This document shows positions 1 to 23,430 of a DNA stretch of 64,000 nucleotides, in pieces. This DNA is from a virus. The notes beneath the pieces are model-generated. The model had not been told where the DNA came from, did no database searches, and was given only the letters and a program-made list of their open reading frames with translations. A program made the translations under genes and the position numbers. Each line of letters opens with the position of its first letter. The first letter of the stretch is position 1. Location: positions 64,001 to 128,000 of the IMG/VR virus record IMGVR_UViG_3300035670_000035; one strand, written 5' to 3'.

Positions 1-2
1 TA

Positions 3-86
3 CCATATTATTATAATTTACATTATCCTATTGGTATACCAGAGGATCTAATGTATTTTGAAAAATATATATATGAAAATATATAA
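3..86 (+). CDS. C-terminal end of a probable sugar-phosphate nucleotidyltransferase (partial, runs off left edge)
   Basis: Frame from nt 3 reads PYYYNLHYPIGIPEDLMYFEKYIYENI*. IGIPEDL resembles the (L/I)GTPEDL C-terminal motif of dTDP-glucose pyrophosphorylase-like NTP transferases. Not in the ORF track. Confidence 0.4.
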   Translation, partial: PYYYNLHYPIGIPEDLMYFEKYIYENI

Positions 87-399
87 AATCAAAAACTTTA
101 AAGACGGTTGGTTTATAGGAAATTTTAAACCAACAATATTTAAAACTAAAGATTTTGAAATATGTTATAAAAAGCATAAGAAAAATGAAAAATGGCCTAT
201 CCATTATCACAAAATTGCGACAGAGTATAATTATTTAATCAGCGGAAAAATGAAAATACAAAATAAAACTTTAAAAAAAGGTGATATATTCGTATTATAT
301 CCTAGTGAGGTTGCGAATCCAATATTCCTAGAAGATTGTGAATTAATCGTAGTGAAAACACCTTCGATAAAAGGAGATAAATACCATGTTAAATTATAA
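73..399 (+). CDS. Cupin-fold protein (sugar epimerase/isomerase-like)
   Basis: GWFIGNF N-terminus; cupin motif 1 HYHKIATEYNYLISG and motif 2 LKKGDIFVLYP. ATG at 73 preferred over the TTG at 58. Confidence 0.7.
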   Translation: MKIYKIKNFKDGWFIGNFKPTIFKTKDFEICYKKHKKNEKWPIHYHKIATEYNYLISGKMKIQNKTLKKGDIFVLYPSEVANPIFLEDCELIVVKTPSIKGDKYHVKL

Positions 400-1600
400 C
401 ATATTTAAAACTGAAGATCAGTTAGATAAAAATTTTTACGAAAGATATTTTATTGTCTCTTATGATTTAGAATCAAAAACTAATCTTAGAGATGCTGCAT
501 GGAATCTTGCAATAGGCCAATCTATAGGTAATCCAAGCGCAAGATCCGAATTTGAAACTCAAGATATGATAGACAATCATTGCGTATTAATATTGGCCGA
601 TGAGAAAGAGCTTTTGCAAAAGAATAAAGGAAATGTAAAATTCGCCTTCCCAGAAACAAATATAAATTTTGAAACAGATGGAATAAGTCAGCTTTTAGTT
701 CAGATCATGGGCGGACAATGCGACATAGACATTATATATCGCTGTTTTGTAACAGACCTACAATTAACAGAAAACATGAAAAAAATTCTAAAAGGTCCAA
801 AAATAGGTTTAAAAGAAATAAAACAATATTGTAATATAAGTAATGACAAACCAATATTTGGCGGTATTGTTAAACCAAAAATAGGATTATCTCCAGAAAA
901 AAATCTTGATCTTGTAAAACAGATGATTGACGGAGGATGTAATTTTATTAAAGAAGACGAAATTCTTTCTGATCCGCAACATTGCCCAATTCATAAAAGA
1001 GTTCCATTAGTTATGAACTATTTAAGGAATAGTGGTTTAAAAGTTTTTTATGCTGTATCTATACATGCAGATCCTTCACAAATTCTAAAAAGAGTTAAGC
1101 AAGTTTATGAATTAGGTGGAAATGGCGTTCATATTAATTTTCACTGTGGATTAGGAGCATATAAAAGCGTAAGAGAATTAAATCTTCCTATCCTAGTTCA
1201 TTTTCAAAAAAGTGGAGATAAGATTTTAAATTGTATAGATCATAGATATGGTATAGATCAAAATGTTATATTTAAGCTGGTCGCTCAAAGTGGTTGCTCC
1301 ACTCTGCATGCAGGAATGATTGGTGGATATATGGATAATGAGACAATAGAAGTTAAAAAGACAATAAAAATCTTAAATGATGAAAATGCTGTTCCTGCAC
1401 TTAGTTGTGGCATGCATCCAGGATTAATTGATTACATTATGAATGAAGTAGGTCATGGAAATTGGATGGCCAATGTAGGAGGAGCGCTTTCTTCTCATCC
1501 AATGGGTACTCTAGCTGGTACAAAAGCTATGCGTCAATCTATAGATAAAAATTATGGTATAGAATATCAAAAAGCTATAGATAAATGGGGTAAAAAATAA
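386..1600 (+). CDS. RuBisCO-like protein (form IV, RLP)
   Basis: GGIVKPKIGL (K175/K177), FIKEDEIL (carbamylated K201, D203, E204), LHAGMIGGY (H327, K334 replaced by Y), PALSCGMHPG, VGGALSSHPMGTLAGTKAMRQ. Confidence 0.92.
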   Translation: MLNYNIFKTEDQLDKNFYERYFIVSYDLESKTNLRDAAWNLAIGQSIGNPSARSEFETQDMIDNHCVLILADEKELLQKNKGNVKFAFPETNINFETDGISQLLVQIMGGQCDIDIIYRCFVTDLQLTENMKKILKGPKIGLKEIKQYCNISNDKPIFGGIVKPKIGLSPEKNLDLVKQMIDGGCNFIKEDEILSDPQHCPIHKRVPLVMNYLRNSGLKVFYAVSIHADPSQILKRVKQVYELGGNGVHINFHCGLGAYKSVRELNLPILVHFQKSGDKILNCIDHRYGIDQNVIFKLVAQSGCSTLHAGMIGGYMDNETIEVKKTIKILNDENAVPALSCGMHPGLIDYIMNEVGHGNWMANVGGALSSHPMGTLAGTKAMRQSIDKNYGIEYQKAIDKWGKK

Positions 1601-1668
1601 TGAGTATAGAAATAAATAAATGCAACAATAATGATTATGGCATAGATTTTACATATAAAATTATATGA
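1600..1668 (+). CDS. 22-aa mini-ORF bridging RLP and GDPD genes (possible deletion remnant)
   Basis: MSIEINKCNNNDYGIDFTYKII*. Starts in a TAATG overlap with the RLP stop and ends in an ATGA overlap with the next start. Confidence 0.35.
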   Translation: MSIEINKCNNNDYGIDFTYKII

Positions 1669-2099
1669 GAGTCATCTCTCATAGAGGCAACCTTTTAGGA
1701 ATACAAAAGAAAACAGAAAATAATCCAGATCAAGTAGACAAAGTATTGTCAATGGGTTTTGATTGCGAGATAGATGTGTGGTATAAAAATAATAATTGGT
1801 ATTTAGGTCATGACAAGCCAATTTATAAAATAAATGAAATTTTTTTAGAAAATAAAAAATTATGGTGTCATGCAAAAAACTTAAATGCTTTAAGTCTTAT
1901 GTTAAAGAATAGAAATATTCATTGCTTCTGGCATCAAAAAGATGATTTTACAATAACCTCTAAAGGTTATATTTGGACATATCCAAACAAAAATACAACA
2001 GACAATTCTGTAATAGTTTTAAAAAATAAAAAAAGTAAATTGCCTAAAAATCTTTTTGGAATATGTACAGATTTTGTACTTTTATACAAAAATACTTGA
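1665..2099 (+). CDS. Short glycerophosphodiester phosphodiesterase-like (GDPD/PI-PLC superfamily) protein
   Basis: ISHRG, GFDCEIDVW, LGHD, WCHAKN and terminal GICTDF motifs. Confidence 0.75.
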   Translation: MRVISHRGNLLGIQKKTENNPDQVDKVLSMGFDCEIDVWYKNNNWYLGHDKPIYKINEIFLENKKLWCHAKNLNALSLMLKNRNIHCFWHQKDDFTITSKGYIWTYPNKNTTDNSVIVLKNKKSKLPKNLFGICTDFVLLYKNT

Positions 2100-4047: not shown

Positions 4048-4695
4048 ATGATATTAAATATAAATTCTGCAGAAGTTCGTATTCAAGAAAATGAATCTAA
4101 TATAAAAGGTCTTAAATTTATACCTCAAATAACAAATTTTGGTCCAAAAGGAAATGATGAAGATCAATTACCATTTAGCACAGGTTTTGCAATAGAAGTA
4201 TCTCCATCAAATTTTTTTCTTACTGAGGAACTTACTAAAAAATATGCAAAACATCATATAGTTGAAATTGGAGTTCATAGAAATGGACAAAATTCTTTTA
4301 CTCGCGCAATGCTTAATCATAAACCAAAAAATTCAAAATATTTAGGTATAGATTTAGAGAGTAAAACCTTCTTAAATAATCAAGAAAATAATATTTACAC
4401 AATACAAGCCAACTCTTTTGAGCAAGAAAGAGTAAGGGCTTACATGCATGAAATAGGTATAGACAAAATATCAATATTTTTTATTGATGGCTGGCATTCT
4501 GTAAATACAATTATAAATGATTGGAAATATACAGATTTACTAGCTGATGATGGAATAGTGATTTTTCACGATACGAATTATCATCCAGGGCCACCTATTT
4601 TATTGGAAGCCATTGATAAAAATTTATATGACATTAAAAAATATTTTGAAAATGATAGAGCAGATTGTGGGATGGCGGTTGCTTTCAAAAAATAA
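4048..4695 (+). CDS. Class I SAM-dependent methyltransferase (Methyltransf_24-like)
   Basis: IVEIGVHRNG motif I, FFIDGWH, IVIFHDT. Confidence 0.78.
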   Translation: MILNINSAEVRIQENESNIKGLKFIPQITNFGPKGNDEDQLPFSTGFAIEVSPSNFFLTEELTKKYAKHHIVEIGVHRNGQNSFTRAMLNHKPKNSKYLGIDLESKTFLNNQENNIYTIQANSFEQERVRAYMHEIGIDKISIFFIDGWHSVNTIINDWKYTDLLADDGIVIFHDTNYHPGPPILLEAIDKNLYDIKKYFENDRADCGMAVAFKK

Positions 4696-5097: not shown

Positions 5098-6582
5098 ATG
5101 ATTTATTCGGTCCAAATTGAGCGCCACGTTTTAAGTGGTCTTATTAAATATCAGAACTTATTTGCGGATGTAGATGTTTTTATATCTGAAAATGACTTTT
5201 ACAATGATGTACATTCTACTATTTATGCCGTATATAAGAATATGCGACACAAAGGCGAGAATATAGATAAAGTATTACTTGCAGAAAAGATTAAAAATCT
5301 TGGAATATCTTTTAAAGATGATATTAATATTTACGATTATATAGATAATTTAAGCTTCTCTCAAATAACAGAGAAAGCCACGATGGAGGCTTGTCAAGAG
5401 CTTCTTAAATTAAGAATAAGAAGAGAGATAGTAGAAACAGCAGACAAGATTAAGACTTTTGTTTCTAAAAATAGTGAACTAACAGTAGATCAACTTTTAG
5501 CTGATGCAGATGCTATGTATAATGGAAAAATTTCAGCATATTCAACAAATGATATACCAATTAATCTTTTTAAAGACGCAGAAGATATTATTGAAGAAAT
5601 AGGTAATAGCCCTAGAGAAGAAATAGGTTTGGTAACCCCATATCCAGAATTTAATAGAATGTATGGCGGTTTAAAAAATGGAAATATTTACGCAATCGTA
5701 AGTAGGCCAGGTCAAGGAAAATCAACATGGATTAATGATATGTGTTTTAAGACATCAATAAATCCAAAGAATAAAACAAAAGCTTTGATCTTGGATACAG
5801 AAATGCAAGCTTTAGATATTAGATTTAGAATGATATCTTCACTTACTGGAGTTCCAGTATGGTATTTAGAAACTGGAAATTGGAGAAAAAATCAAGAAAT
5901 GGTAGTGAAGGTTAGAAATGCTTGGTCAACAATCAAGAACTATGAATATGACCACTATCATGTAGGATCAAAAAATATTGATCAGATTTGTTCGATCATT
6001 CGTAGATGGCATCTTTCTCAAGTAGGAAGAGGTAATCAAGCAATTATCGCTTATGATTATATAAAATTAACTGGCGAAAAAGTTGGTCAAAATTGGGCAG
6101 AGCATCAAGCTATTGGAGATAAGATTGACAAATTAAAAAGAATTTCAGAAGAGCTACAAACCCCAATAGTAACAGCGATGCAATTAAATAGAAGCGGCGA
6201 ATCTTTTAATAAAAAAGGTTCTGATATTGTTGATGATGCTTCAGCGATATCATTGTCAGATAGACTTCAATGGTTCGCTTCTTTCGTAGCTATCTTTCGT
6301 AGAAAAACAGTAGATGAATTAGCTTTAGATGGACAACAATTTGGCACTCACAAACTTATACCAACTAAAACTAGATTCCAAGGTAAAGATTCTGCTGGAC
6401 ACCAAGATATTGTCAGAAGGCTTGACGCTTCTGGAAAAGAAACATGGGCACAAAATTATCTAAACTATAGAGTAGAAAACTTCAATATAACAGAACACGG
6501 ATCATTGGTTGATGTTGCTCAAAGACAAAGAGAGCAATATGAATTAAATGATCGAAACCAAAACGATGGAGAACTATTATGA
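5098..6582 (+). CDS. dnaB: Replicative DNA helicase, DnaB family
   Basis: N-terminal helical domain, Walker A SRPGQGKST, LILDTEM, AYDYIKL, TAMQLNR, SDRLQWFAS. Confidence 0.93.
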   Translation: MIYSVQIERHVLSGLIKYQNLFADVDVFISENDFYNDVHSTIYAVYKNMRHKGENIDKVLLAEKIKNLGISFKDDINIYDYIDNLSFSQITEKATMEACQELLKLRIRREIVETADKIKTFVSKNSELTVDQLLADADAMYNGKISAYSTNDIPINLFKDAEDIIEEIGNSPREEIGLVTPYPEFNRMYGGLKNGNIYAIVSRPGQGKSTWINDMCFKTSINPKNKTKALILDTEMQALDIRFRMISSLTGVPVWYLETGNWRKNQEMVVKVRNAWSTIKNYEYDHYHVGSKNIDQICSIIRRWHLSQVGRGNQAIIAYDYIKLTGEKVGQNWAEHQAIGDKIDKLKRISEELQTPIVTAMQLNRSGESFNKKGSDIVDDASAISLSDRLQWFASFVAIFRRKTVDELALDGQQFGTHKLIPTKTRFQGKDSAGHQDIVRRLDASGKETWAQNYLNYRVENFNITEHGSLVDVAQRQREQYELNDRNQNDGELL

Positions 6583-14329: not shown

Positions 14330-16246
14330 ATGAGGAAAAAGAAACTAGTATATCAATCTGATTTTAGTTTAGCAAAAACTGGCTTTGGAAGAGCTGCCAA
14401 AGCCTTATTGTCTTATTTGTATAAAACTGGGAAATATGATATAACACATTATTCTTGTGGATTAACTTATAATCATCCAGAATTTGAAAGAACCCCTTGG
14501 AAAACAGTTGGTTCCTTACCAAATAACCCTCAAGAGATACAAGAGTTAAATAAAGATCCTAATGTTGCTAGATTAGCGAGCTACGGAGCTCATTATCTAG
14601 ATAAGGTAATACAAGAAGAAAAACCAGACGTATATATTGCAGTTCAAGATATATGGGGCATTGATTTCGCAATCGATAAAAAATGGTTTGATAAAATTAC
14701 ATCTGTACTATGGACCACATTAGATTCTTTACCGATTTTACCAACCGCAGTAGAAAAAGCTCCAAAGATTAAAAATTATTGGATATGGAGTGATTTCGCT
14801 ACAAAAGCACTGCATGATCTTGGACATAAACATGTTGAAACTGTACACGGACCTATTGAAGTTAAAAATTTCTATAGATTAGAAAACTCTAAAAGAGAAG
14901 AGCTTAGAAAAAGAAATAATATTCCATTAGATGCTTTTATTGTTGGATTTGTTTTTAGAAATCAACTTAGAAAAAGCGTTCCTAACTTATTAGAAGGATA
15001 TGCTTTATGGAAAAGATCTAATCCACAAATCAAAAATACATATCTATTATTCCATACACATTGGTCAGAGGGATGGAATATACATAGACTTGCAAAAGAA
15101 TATGGAATTGATTTGAAGGAAATATTAACAACTTATGTTTGTAAAACATGTGGAAATTATGAAGTAAAACCTTTTTATGGTCAAGATATTGATTGTAGAT
15201 TCTGTGGCACTAAAAAATCTCAAACCACAACAAATGTTGGATTAGGGGTTACAGAAGAACAACTAAATGAAGTATACAATATCATGGATGTTTATTGTCA
15301 TCCATTTACTAGTGGTGGACAAGAAATACCAATACAAGAAGCGAAACTAACAGAATTAATTACTCTAGTTACTAACTATAGTTGTGGTGAAGAAATGTGC
15401 CAAGATGAGGCGGCTACATTACCATTAGAATGGTCAGAATATCGCGAGCATGGTACGGAATTTATTAAAGCTTCAACAAAACCAAATTCAATTGCTAAAC
15501 AATTAAATAAAGTATATAATCTGCCAGTTCAAAAAAGAAGAGAAATGGGTAAGAAAGCCAGAGAATGGACTATCAATAATTTTTCTGTTGAAGTTGTAGG
15601 TAAATATATAGAGAATTTTATAGATAATGCACCATTTACAGATTTTGATTTCTCTACAAAGGAAGAGGAAAGAGAGCCTTTTCATAAAATTCCAGAAATA
15701 AAAGATGACGCAGAATGGATAACGTATATGTATCATAATATACTTAAAATGCGTCATGTGGATAATAATGATGATGGTCATAAATATTGGATGAACGAAA
15801 TATCAAAAGGAGTAAAACGACAAGATATTGAAAAATATTTTAGACAAGTTGCTACTCAAGAAAATCAAAAAAATAAAAAAATTACTTTTGAGGAATTGTT
15901 AGGCGAAGGTAATCCAAAAGATAGAATTCTATATGTAATGCCAGAATCTATAGGTGATATTTATATGTCCACAAGTTTATTTGCTTCTATAAAGAAGCAA
16001 TATCCAGATAAAAAATTATACGTCGCAACGAATCCTCAATATTTTACAATATTGGAGGGTAACCCTTTTGTAGATAAAGTCATACAATATACCCCTCAAA
16101 TGGATCAACTATTATGGTTGGAAGGAGTTGGAGATCATAAAGGTTTTTTTGAAATTGCATTTTTACCGCACATAGGCACGCAAAGGATGTTTAATTATCA
16201 ACATAATGGGAAAACTAAAATAGCCTTTGATTTAAAAGATGAATGA
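14330..16246 (+). CDS. Multidomain glycosyltransferase: GT4 (GT-B) with Zn-ribbon insert, DUF4214-like helical domain and GT9 N-terminal half
   Basis: TGFGR, RNQLRK, CKTC...CRFC, MDVYCHPFTSGGQEIPIQEA; YHNILKMRHVD..GHKYW; ILYVMPESIGDIYMSTSLFASIKKQYPD. Confidence 0.8.
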   Translation: MRKKKLVYQSDFSLAKTGFGRAAKALLSYLYKTGKYDITHYSCGLTYNHPEFERTPWKTVGSLPNNPQEIQELNKDPNVARLASYGAHYLDKVIQEEKPDVYIAVQDIWGIDFAIDKKWFDKITSVLWTTLDSLPILPTAVEKAPKIKNYWIWSDFATKALHDLGHKHVETVHGPIEVKNFYRLENSKREELRKRNNIPLDAFIVGFVFRNQLRKSVPNLLEGYALWKRSNPQIKNTYLLFHTHWSEGWNIHRLAKEYGIDLKEILTTYVCKTCGNYEVKPFYGQDIDCRFCGTKKSQTTTNVGLGVTEEQLNEVYNIMDVYCHPFTSGGQEIPIQEAKLTELITLVTNYSCGEEMCQDEAATLPLEWSEYREHGTEFIKASTKPNSIAKQLNKVYNLPVQKRREMGKKAREWTINNFSVEVVGKYIENFIDNAPFTDFDFSTKEEEREPFHKIPEIKDDAEWITYMYHNILKMRHVDNNDDGHKYWMNEISKGVKRQDIEKYFRQVATQENQKNKKITFEELLGEGNPKDRILYVMPESIGDIYMSTSLFASIKKQYPDKKLYVATNPQYFTILEGNPFVDKVIQYTPQMDQLLWLEGVGDHKGFFEIAFLPHIGTQRMFNYQHNGKTKIAFDLKDE

Positions 16247-16880
16247 AGTTAAAGTACTTGTTCCACAATTAATATCTCCAAAAGGAGCTTGGTTTTTTTG
16301 GAAACAAAATGCGGATAATATATTTAATAATTTAACATTTAAAAATAAATATAGAGCCATATACGATGGTTATATCGAAGGTAATGAACATAGATATGCT
16401 AAATTAGTAAAGTTAAGAAATAAAATTATAGAAGATAACTTAAAAGACGAATATACTCATATTTTTTGGATGGATGTAGATATAGTAGAATACCCTTTTG
16501 ATATTATAGAAAAATTACTATCAATTTCCACAACAGAAGTAGTCGCACCATATGTTTATATAGAAGATAATGATTGGTGGCCTTGGAAAAGATTCTATGA
16601 TATTGATGGTTTTATTGATTGTCAAGGAGTCAAATTTGATTTTAAACCACCATATAATAGATCTAATGGAGATATTAAAACAGAAGTTAATTCTGTAGGA
16701 ACTTGTTTTATTATTCCAGCTCATTTACATAAAAAGATAAAATATGATATTAATGATAAAAGATTAGATCATGTAGCTTTTTTTGAGAAAGTTCGCGGTC
16801 TTGGACGTAGAATAATAGTAGAACCAAGTATAGAAATAAGACATGCATTTTTACCTAAATATGGAGAAAATTTTCATTAA
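16239..16880 (+). CDS. GT-A fold glycosyltransferase (GT2/Anp1-like)
   Basis: LVKLRNKII, HIFWMDVD (DxD), VVAP, VNSVGTCFII, DHVAF. Confidence 0.72.
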   Translation: MNEVKVLVPQLISPKGAWFFWKQNADNIFNNLTFKNKYRAIYDGYIEGNEHRYAKLVKLRNKIIEDNLKDEYTHIFWMDVDIVEYPFDIIEKLLSISTTEVVAPYVYIEDNDWWPWKRFYDIDGFIDCQGVKFDFKPPYNRSNGDIKTEVNSVGTCFIIPAHLHKKIKYDINDKRLDHVAFFEKVRGLGRRIIVEPSIEIRHAFLPKYGENFH

Positions 16881-16883
16881 TTT

Positions 16884-18068
16884 ATGCACCTAATAGAATC
16901 ATATGCAACATCTTCTGGTCTAAAAATAGGAAAACCATTTATTCTAGAATCCTATTTTCCTTTGCCTTTTGAAAAGTATATATCTTTTCAGCCTTTTAGC
17001 AAATATCCAGCTAAGGATTATGATTATTGGCAGGAAGTGATTAATTTAATATTACCACATTTAAAAGCATACAATATCGAAATTGTTCAAATTGGTGGCG
17101 AAAAAGAAAAAATTTTAGAAAATACATATAATACAGTTGGTCAAACTAATATAAGGCAAGCTGCATATATTATTAAAAATAGTATCATTCATGTTGGTAC
17201 AGATAGTTTTGGAGCGCATATTGCTTCTGGTTTTGGTAAAAAAATAGTAGCTTTATATAGTAATAATAATATTAATAATGTTAAACCATATTGGACAAAA
17301 GAAGAAGATATGGTTTTACTTTCACCAGAACTTGAATGTAAACCTAGTTATGCTGCCCAAGAAAACCCTAAAAGTATTAATAATATAAAACCAGAAAAAA
17401 TTGCACAAGCCATTTTAAAACTTCTAAAAATTAAAAATAATTTAAATACATTAGAAACGATTTATGTTGGTAAAGTTTTTAATAATAAACTTTTTCATAT
17501 TGTTCCAGATCATATAGTTCAGAGATCTAGTCTAATAGACCATTGCGTTTCTAGAATGGATATATTATTCAATGAAAATAATTTAAGAAATCAATTAAAA
17601 ATAATGCCATGTATTATCGCCACGAATAGACCAATAGATATAAATATATTACTAGAAAATAGGACTCATGTAATAGGCATAAATTGTTTTATAGAAGATG
17701 AAACTAATCTTGAATTCATTAAACAATTAAAAAATGCTAATATTAAATATCAATTATACTCTTATCTTTCAGAAGAAGACTTAAATAAATATAAATTAGA
17801 TTATTTAGATTATGGTATAATTGCTAAGATTAATCTTCAACATCCAAAAGTAGAGGAAATTATTAACAAATATAAATCTAATAATTTATATTATAAATCA
17901 AATAACCTAATTCTTAGTAAAGGTAATGTATTTCTAAGCGAAAAAGCTTTTTTTGATAATAAACCAGTTAATTCAATTAATGAAAATATGCAGGAATTTT
18001 ATGATATTAAAATAATAAATGAGAATCCTGAAAAGTTTTATATCTTTAATATGAACTTGACACAATAA
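16884..18068 (+). CDS. GT9-like C-terminal Rossmann domain fused to an unknown domain
   Basis: KDYDYWQEVI, IVQIGG, GQTNIRQAAYIIKNSIIHVGTDSFGAHIASGFGKKIVALY. Confidence 0.75.
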   Translation: MHLIESYATSSGLKIGKPFILESYFPLPFEKYISFQPFSKYPAKDYDYWQEVINLILPHLKAYNIEIVQIGGEKEKILENTYNTVGQTNIRQAAYIIKNSIIHVGTDSFGAHIASGFGKKIVALYSNNNINNVKPYWTKEEDMVLLSPELECKPSYAAQENPKSINNIKPEKIAQAILKLLKIKNNLNTLETIYVGKVFNNKLFHIVPDHIVQRSSLIDHCVSRMDILFNENNLRNQLKIMPCIIATNRPIDINILLENRTHVIGINCFIEDETNLEFIKQLKNANIKYQLYSYLSEEDLNKYKLDYLDYGIIAKINLQHPKVEEIINKYKSNNLYYKSNNLILSKGNVFLSEKAFFDNKPVNSINENMQEFYDIKIINENPEKFYIFNMNLTQ

Positions 18069-22550: not shown

Positions 22551-22576
22551 CCTTATACCTTTAAATATATTACACT
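22551..22576 (-). promoter_or_regulatory. Composite late element AGTGTAA-TATATTT-AAAGG-TA-TAAGG
   Basis: Reads directly on the - strand; the TAA of the motif is the stop codon of ORF 22570-23430. Confidence 0.7.
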
Positions 22577-23430
22577 GTTAATTTAATTAAATTTTTATAT
22601 ATATTAGGATATTTAATATTTATAACATTTAGAATTTTATCTAAATATTTATCTCTGTGTTCTTTAGAGCTTAAATGAGCAAAAGTCATTATTTTACTAT
22701 CTTTTTCTTTTTCGGTTTCATATATACTATAAGTTTTTAAATTATGATATTTTGCATAAAATGATAAGAATAATTGCTCTGGTATCGTGGGTAAATAAAT
22801 ACTATTATACAAATAAGAAATATTTTTATAAAATTTATTAAAAAATTCAAATAATAATAAAGACTTTTCGGCGTAATCTTTTGCGTACTTTGAGTTTTTA
22901 AAACCTATAATAGAACAATTATATGCTTTAAAAGAATATGCTTCATTCTCATTTTTAAGATTTAAATTTTTATCATAAAAACTATCAACTAAATAATCCC
23001 ATTCTAAAATTAAGTTCTTGGGAACACTTTGAGCAAAAATTTTTAAAAGCTCACCACAATACCATTTTCTTTCTTCTATAATTTCGTCATGCGTATAGAT
23101 TAAATCATTTTGATCTAAAAGATTCGATAAATCTTTAAAGAGAAAAACATCATGATCAATAATTATTTCATCATTCATTTTCTCAAATGTTTTCATTTTA
23201 GAAGAGCTCCAATAATTTCTGTACTTATCGTCGTGATTAATTTCTATAAAATTATCATAATTTAAACCTAAATTTTTACATTTATTAATATGTTCTAAAT
23301 TTGAATATAGATTTATTTTTAATTTTTTTTCTTTTATCAAAAGAAAAGAAAATATCTGGTAAACAAAAAAAATAATATCTGCTCTATTATATTTTAAATT
23401 ATTTGGCAAAAAAGAATGAGCATAAATCAT
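22570..23430 (-). CDS. GT-A-like nucleotide-sugar transferase (DUF6734-like)
   Basis: WSSSKMKTF, IIIDHDVFLFK (DxD), YNCSIIGF, IPEQLFLS, FAHL. Confidence 0.6.
   Translation of the reverse strand: MIYAHSFLPNNLKYNRADIIFFVYQIFSFLLIKEKKLKINLYSNLEHINKCKNLGLNYDNFIEINHDDKYRNYWSSSKMKTFEKMNDEIIIDHDVFLFKDLSNLLDQNDLIYTHDEIIEERKWYCGELLKIFAQSVPKNLILEWDYLVDSFYDKNLNLKNENEAYSFKAYNCSIIGFKNSKYAKDYAEKSLLLFEFFNKFYKNISYLYNSIYLPTIPEQLFLSFYAKYHNLKTYSIYETEKEKDSKIMTFAHLSSKEHRDKYLDKILNVINIKYPNIYKNLIKLTV

Follow-up and report, generated by a model that had tools for sequence, protein, structure and literature searches.

A phage RuBisCO-like protein in a conserved cassette of nucleotidyltransferase, cupin and GDPD-like genes, with a probable role in the synthesis of glycan donors

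To our knowledge, every characterised RuBisCO-like protein (RLP) works in salvage or catabolism. In the known salvage routes the RLP has a cupin partner, as in the MtnW/MtnD pair and in the R. rubrum RLP with its own cupin, and these are precedents for an RLP and cupin pairing. The original prediction on the present locus had pointed out that RuBisCO-family genes have been reported in phage from metagenomes, and the clade in question is indeed on record: Jaffe, Castelle, Dupont and Banfield (Mol Biol Evol, 2019; PMC6389311) described RuBisCO-related proteins, termed "form IV-like", in phages and Beckwithbacteria, left their function open, and suggested that they might act in RuBisCO transfer or in carbon metabolism, without analysing the gene context of the clade. 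A literature search on RLPs in connection with nucleotide sugars, nucleotidyltransferases or cupins found no paper on the cassette described here.

The locus comes from an uncultured phage of 136 kb, and the window is the whole 64,000-nucleotide stretch that was analysed (G000:C1:64001-128000). It opens with the end of a nucleotidyltransferase gene (N), a cupin gene (C), the RLP gene (R) and a GDPD-like gene (G), all four lying where they had been predicted; the features referred to below are the following.

1..86, plus strand: N, sugar-phosphate nucleotidyltransferase, 241 aa, 3' end in the window (full gene L003:15361-16086)
73..399, plus strand: C, single-domain metal cupin, 108 aa (phrog_24762, 1.5e-37)
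386..1600, plus strand: R, form IV ("IV-like") RuBisCO-like protein, 404 aa (PF00016, 2.9e-33)
1665..2099, plus strand: G, minimal GDPD-fold phosphodiesterase-like protein, 144 aa (phrog_34507, 5.4e-24)
4048..4695, plus strand: CmcI/Methyltransf_24-like methyltransferase, 215 aa (PF13578, 4e-5; PF04989, 1.2e-3)
14330-16246: GT1 glycosyltransferase (Pfam)
16239-16880: Anp1-like glycosyltransferase (Pfam)
16884-18068: GT9 glycosyltransferase (Pfam)

N and C overlap by 14 nt, as do C and R, and the spacing of 64 nt between R and G holds no plus-strand terminator, in keeping with the coupled run that had been proposed. The last 28 codons of N open the window, where frame 3 of positions 1-86 terminates in ...HYPIGIPEDLMYFEKYIYENI and a stop, and its 5' part reaches 639 nt further upstream; the upstream DNA completes a 241-aa ORF that matches PF00483 (NTP_transferase) at 7.8e-12, so the gene is the NTP transferase that its C-terminus had suggested. 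The cassette closes a 16-gene sugar cluster on the plus strand, whose members include NeuB, a TPP enzyme, SDRs, a DHQS-like protein and a GDP-mannose 4,6-dehydratase. Five glycosyltransferases and two methyltransferases had been claimed for the window, and Pfam recovers part of this set, namely GT1, the Anp1-like enzyme, GT9 and one CmcI-like methyltransferase. This methyltransferase is 44% identical to the cassette-adjacent one of locus L057, whose family occurs 32 times and adjoins the cassette in all but one case. A profile search finds neither a DUF7796-like nor a WavE-like gene in this phage. Against 50,697 GenBank phage records, its DnaB reaches at most 25% identity, which gives no host inference, and R has no match by tblastn, that is, no cultured phage carrier is found there.

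R belongs to the RuBisCO large-subunit superfamily, with 115.8 bits on PF00016 against a cut-off of 30.1 and 99 matching PDB sequences of RuBisCO or RLP at E <= 1e-3 (best 8dht, 8.3e-31), and it falls far under the cut-offs of all NCBIfam RuBisCO and RLP equivalogs. Specifically, the best of these, the type III RuBisCO model TIGR03326, gives 144.7 bits against 497, the MtnW models give 100.2 against 513.6 (TIGR03332) and 125.2 against 409 (NF007095), and the OiaX model NF042437 gives 114.1 against 700. The metal/carbamate and P1 sites are retained whereas the carboxylation residues are lost: R keeps K175, K177, K201, D203, E204, H327, S379, G381 and G403/404, and the K189-E-D191-E192 motif (KEDE), invariant among 31 clade members, aligns to the KDDE of form I and thus reproduces the Lys201/Asp203/Glu204 metal site. 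Conversely, of the full carboxylating set of forms I-III (H294, R295, K334, T65/W66, N123), H294 is replaced by Q274, R295 by K275, K334 by Y315, T65/W66 by N49/P50 and N123 by G/Q, and H298 by D278. The replacements of K334, H294, R295 and T65/W66 are fixed throughout the clade, and the equivalent of the distal phosphate site is polar (Q274, K275, D278, Y315). In a quick maximum-likelihood tree (IQ-TREE, 47 clade rows, with references that omit the DeepYkr and Photo clades), the R clade is monophyletic with an SH-aLRT of 99, a long, 99%-supported stem sets B. velezensis MtnW apart from it, and the Beckwithbacteria homolog L020 (47% identical to R) nests inside it, which identifies it as the "IV-like" clade. 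The clade, which may also be Tabita's IV-GOS, counts 2440 homologs at E <= 1e-10 and is present on at least 383 IMG/VR viral contigs.

The nearest PDB entry to N, over its full length, is the V. cholerae NDP-sugar pyrophosphorylase 4evw (1.4e-9), and its best matches, RmlA, GlmU, HddC and 4evw, are all sugar-1-phosphate transferases, with weak matches to IspD, LicC and inositol-1-P cytidylyltransferase; it shares 49% identity with its counterpart in a CPR-like bacterial cassette. In C, H44, H46 and E51 are strictly conserved and H35 almost so (motif HxH..E), and the model (pLDDT 97) has 3h8u, KdgF and the Thermococcus phosphomannose isomerase 7zvm as its nearest folds; the isomerase (7zvm/7zvy; 26% identity, TM 0.67) is among the best matches, with 3h8u and KdgF scoring equally high, and C may be regarded from its modelled fold as a putative aldose-ketose isomerase of sugar phosphates. 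For G, Pfam yields nothing at E <= 0.01 and Foldseek, run on its model (pLDDT 96), nothing at E <= 1e-3. A wide VIA search gives only GDPD/PLD proteins among its 22 best structural matches (Z 8.1-10.9, 131-140 of 144 residues aligned), and the family profile matches the N-terminus of the GDPD 7e0v at 8.8e-4. Moreover, the GDPD motifs H6 R7 G8, E18 N19, E35-x-D37 and G48 H49 (D50) are fully or almost fully conserved, which places G in the GDPD superfamily, and the invariant residues comprise H6, R7, E18, N19, E35, D37, H49, H69, K71, H90, W104, C134 and D136. G is shorter by about 100 residues than any GDPD of solved structure, and its family forms 3013 clusters at 50% identity.

The neighbourhood of R is conserved. 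A census of 108 RLP-anchored loci from phages, GVMAG giant-virus bins, SAR11, CPR, DPANN, Bacteroidota and Verrucomicrobiota, many of which are related phages and some near-duplicates so that the counts overstate independent events, finds N within 5 kb of R in 105 loci, C and G in 89 each, and putative transferases of the DUF7796 or WavE-like type in 71; at 36 loci a CmcI-like methyltransferase lies within the same distance. Gene order is shuffled, with NCRG the most frequent arrangement (49 loci), followed by NCR (11), GNCR (7), and then RNCG and others. The neighbours are transferases and methyltransferases, not transporters or kinases, and a phosphomutase is usually absent. The cassette is conserved and mobile, and its glycan loci belong to phages as well as to cells; a neighbourhood analysis of this kind had been proposed as a check. 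The exceptions are the Verrucomicrobia-type loci L010 and L028, which lie outside obvious glycan clusters, L010 also having no N within 10 kb. A 222-aa protein beside the Verrucomicrobia RLP was considered as a divergent G and rejected (hhalign probability 0.2%); it is a distant relative of DUF7796 (probability 79%). The partner profiles of the DUF7796-like (A4) and WavE-like (A5) families have no match among PDB sequences, and a structural model of DUF7796 resembles the capsular DUF8374 proteins of Campylobacterota (TM 0.73), which is a lead only.

Gene fusions join the same components. Two natural proteins, P0121 (817 aa) and P0122 (813 aa), combine R, N and C in one chain, with C placed after R-N. 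G is often fused too, mostly to transferases or methyltransferases: to DUF7796 (8 cases), to MT24 (P0131 and P0210), to WavE-like and GT61 domains, and also to a cupin (cupin-G). When the search is anchored on G (80 modules), N is found in 69, DUF7796 or WavE-like genes in 51, a beta-phosphoglucomutase-like HAD in 50 and an RLP in 4. The wider core module, new here, is N plus G, with or without DUF7796, and usually has no RLP. In the sister modules a beta-phosphoglucomutase-like HAD stands in place of R and RpiB in place of C. Specifically, 39 of the 50 HADs are HAD-N fusions whose nucleotidyltransferase domain is 40% identical to N, HAD-IIIA domains are likewise fused to N, and the RpiB part of N-RpiB fusions scores 106.6 bits on TIGR00689 (cut-off 88.3). 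G adjoins R in the phage, as had been described, but it belongs mainly with transfer and decoration enzymes and with this wider module.

On balance, R, C and N probably form a mobile donor-synthesis unit, with R as its signature enzyme, whose product, an unusual nucleotide-activated sugar or sugar-like phosphate, would serve to decorate surface or virion glycans. The linkage and fusion of the genes, the folds of their products and the pattern of residues are observed; every chemical step, and what the substrate and product may be, we infer from them. With its Mg2+/carbamyl-lysine centre and phosphate-binding glycine loops retained, R would enolise a 2-keto sugar phosphate whose phosphate lies next to the carbonyl and then reprotonate it, in an epimerase or isomerase type of reaction and not a carboxylation. 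The small metal cupin C would perform an isomerisation of the aldose-ketose type, the role that RpiB may fill in the sister modules, and N would join the resulting phosphate to an NMP. G would act at the transfer end, with the DUF7796/WavE-like transferases and the CmcI-like methyltransferase, probably trimming or rearranging a phosphoester on the donor or the decorated glycan. Since RLP cassettes usually have no phosphomutase, a C1 phosphate fit for a PF00483-type transferase would have to come from isomerisation of a ketose-1-P to an aldose-1-P or from a host mutase, or N would activate a primary phosphate instead. The anabolic role that had been predicted for the RLP is partly supported, by the conserved glycan-locus cassette; the rearrangement or (de)carboxylation of a ketose phosphate to a branched sugar offered with it stays hypothetical, and the residues required for carboxylation chemistry are replaced (K334 to Y, H294 to Q). 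Against donor synthesis stand the lack of a mutase, the location of L010 and L028 and the missing DUF7796 or WavE-like gene of this phage. A bolder and speculative extension, to which we lend limited credence, is that within the RuBisCO superfamily this branch is biosynthetic and acts in a new pathway to nucleotide sugars or sugar-phosphate donors: R would epimerise a C1-phosphorylated ketose through an enediolate, C would make the aldose-1-P, yielding a rare sugar-1-phosphate without a mutase, a new transferase family (DUF7796/WavE-like) and the miniature GDPD would use the product, and viruses would have spread the system across microbes of all three domains.

Alternatively, and in our view improbably, the product may be a CDP-alcohol-type donor. 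R and C would supply a ketose or polyol phosphate whose primary phosphate N would activate, much as AbpA activates xylulose-5-P and TarI ribitol-5-P, the DUF7796/WavE-like proteins would act as phosphotransferases and attach a group through a phosphodiester, G would trim it and the methyltransferase would cap it, resulting in a decoration like teichoic acid or MeOPN and not in a glycosyl residue. The phosphodiesterase fold of G and its fusions to putative transferases and a methyltransferase, the lack of a mutase in RLP cassettes, the weak matches of N to IspD, LicC and inositol-1-P cytidylyltransferase and the DUF8374 lead are compatible with such a donor, as is the phosphate position, all RuBisCO and RLP substrates known to us carrying a phosphate on the CH2 that adjoins the carbonyl. 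However, the best matches of N remain sugar-1-phosphate transferases, and in the sister modules N has a beta-phosphoglucomutase-like HAD and RpiB as partners, the classical isomerase/mutase route to a sugar-1-phosphate.

It is very unlikely that the cassette is instead a salvage unit for methionine or SAM by-products, in which R would be an MtnW-like enolase or an MTRu-1-P isomerase, C an enzyme of the ARD or methylsulfurylase type and G the phosphatase, all serving the neighbouring methyltransferases. The frequency of those methyltransferases, the cupin partner shared with the known salvage routes, and the alternation of HAD and RLP, which parallels the replacement of the RLP enolase by the HAD enzyme MtnC in other organisms, would fit such a unit, but SAM-dependent methyltransferases give SAH and not MTA, R is fused to a nucleotidyltransferase, its distal phosphate site is polar and its mtnW scores of 100-125 bits are far from the cut-offs of 409-514. 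Furthermore, none of the five cassette genomes (two of them complete chromosomes) holds a member of the MtnA/R15P-isomerase family (IF-2B, PF01008), which the same search finds in 9 of 14 control genomes, and this argues against both methionine salvage and the AMP pathway; the PF00485 (PRK) profile also matches uridine kinases and is non-diagnostic for PRK. With these genomes, the transferase and methyltransferase neighbours and the R-N-C fusions, none of the observations named beforehand as refuting the original prediction has come up. Least credible of all is a working carboxylase, form III-like and part of the nucleotide/AMP pathway, or else a catabolic RLP for sugar acids of the OiaX/OiaC kind, as the best NCBIfam match to a type III model, the retention of both K175 and K177 as in true RuBisCO and the use of form III enzymes by CPR and DPANN organisms (PMC6389311) are outweighed by the clade-invariant replacements, the score far below 497 bits, the five genomes without an R15P-isomerase family gene, and the absence from all 108 loci of the four-carbon acid-sugar kinases and transporters that neighbour plasmid OiaX-type RLPs.

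If true, a role in glycan biosynthesis would add a new function to an enzyme fold that ranks among the most studied and would assign a function to a large clade that has lacked one since 2007-2019. The cassette occurs in hypervariable glycan islands of SAR11, CPR and DPANN cells as well as in phages and giant-virus bins, which makes its product a likely surface determinant in phage-host recognition of abundant environmental microbes. The natural R-N-C fusions and a sequenced, cassette-bearing Pelagibacter genome (Pelagibacter sp. Uisw_094, L012) make the question directly testable.

Compared with the known systems, R belongs to the same clade as the "IV-like" proteins of Jaffe et al. (PMC6389311), which come from uncultured phage contigs of many environments and share the divergent residue set; that account contains neither the N/cupin/GDPD cassette nor the fusions, nor the modules in which a HAD takes the place of the RLP. 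MtnW (YkrW clade) and the MTRu-1-P isomerase RLP of R. rubrum share with R the RuBisCO large-subunit fold and the carbamyl-lysine/Asp/Glu metal site, and R probably also enolises a keto sugar phosphate, yet R is only about 25% identical to them, scores well below the family cut-offs, keeps K177, and is partnered by a nucleotidyltransferase and transferases instead of salvage enzymes, in genomes without MtnA. OiaX/OiaC of apiose catabolism and related proteobacterial RLPs are also form IV RLPs, with phosphorylated keto sugars as their substrates; their loci adjoin four-carbon acid-sugar kinases and transporters and their motif is of the HxHRNG/K334 type, whereas the R clade has HFQKSGD/GGY and resides in anabolic glycan loci. 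The routes to GDP-mannose (PMI/PMM/GMP) and GDP-heptose (GmhA/HddA/GmhB/HddC) follow the same logic, in which an isomerase and a phosphate-repositioning enzyme feed a PF00483-type transferase. We know of no nucleotide-sugar pathway that uses an RLP or a miniature GDPD; relative to the classical isomerase-mutase-nucleotidyltransferase order, the cassette puts an RLP in the supply position and adds the miniature GDPD.

The RuBisCO-like protein (RLP) of this phage belongs to a real and strongly conserved module with a nucleotidyltransferase (N), a metal cupin and a mini-GDPD (G), and gene context and gene fusions give good support to an anabolic donor-synthesis role for this known but uncharacterised RLP clade. 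In the source IMG/VR virus record (136,131 bp, of which the window, G+C ~28%, is bases 64001-128000), genes were located by ORF listing, Pfam and PHROG scans, and reading of the raw sequence:

L003:6574-15346 (upstream DNA; = G000:C1:54574-63346), + strand: contiguous sugar cluster, shortly upstream of the window
entering from upstream and stopping at base 86, + strand: C-terminal part of N, reading frame ending in IGIPEDLMYFEKYIYENI and a stop
73-399, + strand: cupin, 108 aa (ORF, Pfam and PHROG listing)
386-1600, + strand: RuBisCO_large protein, 404 aa (PF00016, 2.9e-33)
1665-2099, + strand: G, 144-aa ORF (ORF listing)
4048-4695, + strand: CmcI-like methyltransferase, downstream of UvsX
14330-18068: glycosyltransferase block of three Pfam-supported genes (GT1 with a DUF4214 tail, Anp1-like, GT9)
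22570-23430, minus strand: DUF6734 protein

The original prediction of a four-gene run headed by an NTP transferase is borne out by ORFs, domain matches, raw sequence and upstream DNA; specifically, the frame entering the window becomes a 241-aa NTP_transferase (PF00483, 7.8e-12) once 16 kb of upstream sequence is included. N and cupin overlap by 14 nt, as do cupin and RLP, and no + strand terminator was found in the 64-nt spacer between RLP and G. The cassette is followed by UvsX, the CmcI-like methyltransferase, DnaB and primase, while the three adjacent glycosyltransferase genes are flanked by replication genes on one side and the structural block on the other. DUF7796/WavE-like genes, putative transferases, were not found in this phage. 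The upstream cluster codes for NeuB, an acetolactate-synthase-like TPP enzyme, SDRs, an epimerase, GDP-mannose 4,6-dehydratase, an AroB-related putative sugar-phosphate cyclase-like protein (TIGR04425, 291 bits, below the cut-off of 400) and further unassigned ORFs of 325, 81 and 367 aa; since none of these genes is conserved beside RLP cassettes elsewhere, the cluster probably makes sugars other than the cassette product. The RLP gene is absent from all of a 50,697-record GenBank phage collection, to any record of which the DnaB helicase (5098-6582) is at most 25% identical, and the lineage of the phage has no close cultured relatives.

A search with the RLP finds 2440 homologs at E <= 1e-10, and relatives occur on at least 383 IMG/VR contigs and in 23 GTDB species genomes, including a complete Pelagibacter chromosome, other SAR11 genomes, a complete Verrucomicrobiae chromosome, Saccharibacteria, Beckwithbacteria, other Patescibacteria, Woesearchaeota, other archaea and Bacteroidota. 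When 108 RLP loci were scanned with HMMs made from the cassette proteins, N lay within 5 kb of the RLP in 105/108, G and cupin in 89/108 each, a DUF7796- or WavE-like protein in 71/108 and a CmcI-like methyltransferase in 36/108, counts that overstate independent events because several loci are near-duplicates. Gene order varies (NCRG 49, NCR 11, GNCR 7, also RNCG, GRN and others), which argues for selection on linkage beyond inherited synteny alone, and RLP, N and cupin are fused into one chain in proteins P0121 (817 aa) and P0122 (813 aa). A beta-phosphoglucomutase-like HAD gene occurs in only 12/108 loci, 7 of which carry a second nucleotidyltransferase copy. Two Verrucomicrobia-type genomes (L010:6707-9962, L028:12292-14949) have the RLP outside any obvious glycan cluster: one places it beside genes for arginase, ornithine cyclodeaminase and an amino-acid permease, the other beside those for a fatty-acid desaturase and an HI0933-like flavoprotein. 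A distant relative of DUF7796 still adjoins the RLP there, and N was not found within 10 kb of the RLP in L010. A divergent SAR11 branch has the order G-N-R-N' without a cupin, with a ThyX (Thy1) gene immediately upstream of the cassette (L024:7806-8753); the protein cluster of this ThyX recurs in 7 loci.

A second census, anchored on G, reveals a wider module that is new in this analysis. At 50% identity the mini-GDPD family falls into 3013 clusters. Its members are present on at least 588 viral contigs, and among the family's best 80 loci the partners within 5 kb are N (69/80), a DUF7796/WavE-like protein (51/80), a beta-phosphoglucomutase-like HAD (50/80), cupin (15/80), RpiB (6/80) and RLP (4/80). 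HAD-N fusions, whose nucleotidyltransferase domain is 40% identical to N, account for 39 of the HAD occurrences. The natural fusions of N, which make up one family of modular enzymes for donor synthesis in viral glycan loci, include:

L040:13563-14960: N with an N-terminal beta-phosphoglucomutase-like HAD
L170:4556-5707: N with an RpiB/LacAB-type sugar-phosphate isomerase (106.6 bits on TIGR00689, above the cut-off of 88.3)
L192:4578-5672: N with a HAD-IIIA/Cof-like domain

Moreover, G is fused to DUF7796 in 8 cases; its other fusion partners are the CmcI-like methyltransferase, WavE-like and GT61 domains and, in a single case, the cupin (fusion proteins P0183, P0206, P0176, P0131, P0210, P0202, P0205 and P0262); as a lead only, DUF7796 clusters are named viral "capsular polysaccharide biosynthesis" or "glycosyltransferase" in Atlas. 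From the G-anchored partner counts and the fusions of N and G, the best-supported anatomy has two parts: donor synthesis, consisting of N and a variable precursor-supply enzyme (HAD mutase/phosphatase, RpiB, cupin, or RLP with cupin), and transfer/decoration, consisting of a DUF7796/WavE-like transferase, the mini-GDPD and a methyltransferase.

The RLP scores 87.6-144.7 bits against every NCBIfam RuBisCO/RLP model (cut-offs 409-700), among PDB entries it is closest to 8dht, 3nwr and 2oej, and in a quick ML tree all 47 clade sequences share one long stem (SH-aLRT 99), separate from MtnW, OiaX-type RLPs and form I. Residues were read from two alignments, one against form I, MtnW, OiaX and further RLPs and one of 31 clade members: K175, K177, the carbamyl-lysine motif (as KEDE), H327, S379, G381 and G403/G404 are invariant, whereas H294->Q, R295->K, H298->D, K334->Y and T65/W66->N/P are replaced. 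The protein keeps the enolisation machinery and proximal phosphate site and has lost the carboxylation/cleavage residues. The cupin model (pLDDT 97) has an HxH...E metal motif, with 3h8u, small Thermococcus phosphomannose isomerases and KdgF as nearest relatives; the closest solved relative of N is 4evw, an uncharacterised V. cholerae NDP-sugar pyrophosphorylase. G (pLDDT 96) has the catalytic motifs of GDPDs and matches GDPD/PLD barrels over its full length (Z 8.1-10.9). At ~100 residues less than the shortest of these, it is an undescribed pared-down GDPD barrel; H69, K71, H90, W104, C134 and D136 are further invariant in its family.

The RLP occupies the place held by the mutase-type HAD in sister modules, and the mutase is usually missing from RLP cassettes. 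The RLP would enolise a 2-keto sugar phosphate with the phosphate adjacent to the carbonyl, a motif common to all known RuBisCO/RLP substrates, and would reprotonate the intermediate to an epimer or positional isomer; the cupin would perform an aldose-ketose type isomerisation and N would attach NMP. It is an attractive but rather doubtful refinement that C1 carries the phosphate from the start and that isomerisation of a ketose-1-P to an aldose-1-P (MtnA-type chemistry in reverse) yields the sugar-1-phosphate. The main alternative, a CDP-alcohol-type donor for a phosphodiester-linked decoration, draws on the phosphodiesterase fold of G and on its fusion partners, and is itself rather improbable. 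MTRu-1-P and RuBP from the AMP pathway are unlikely substrates, because no gene of the IF-2B family, which covers MtnA and ribose-1,5-bisphosphate isomerase, was found in 5 cassette-bearing genomes (2 complete) by a search that detected the family in 9/14 control genomes.

New RuBisCO-homolog groups were described in ocean metagenomes by the GOS paper (PMC1821046), and ~80 phage "IV-like" RLPs were grouped with Beckwithbacteria, their function left open (Jaffe et al. 2019, PMC6389311); in the literature searched, neither the cassette nor a glycan role for an RLP is described. Of the findings that would speak against an anabolic sugar-nucleotide role, such as RLP homologs lying mainly beside methionine-salvage genes or catabolic transporters, none was encountered. 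Unlike the cassette RLPs, those of proteobacterial plasmids adjoin four-carbon acid-sugar kinases and transporters.
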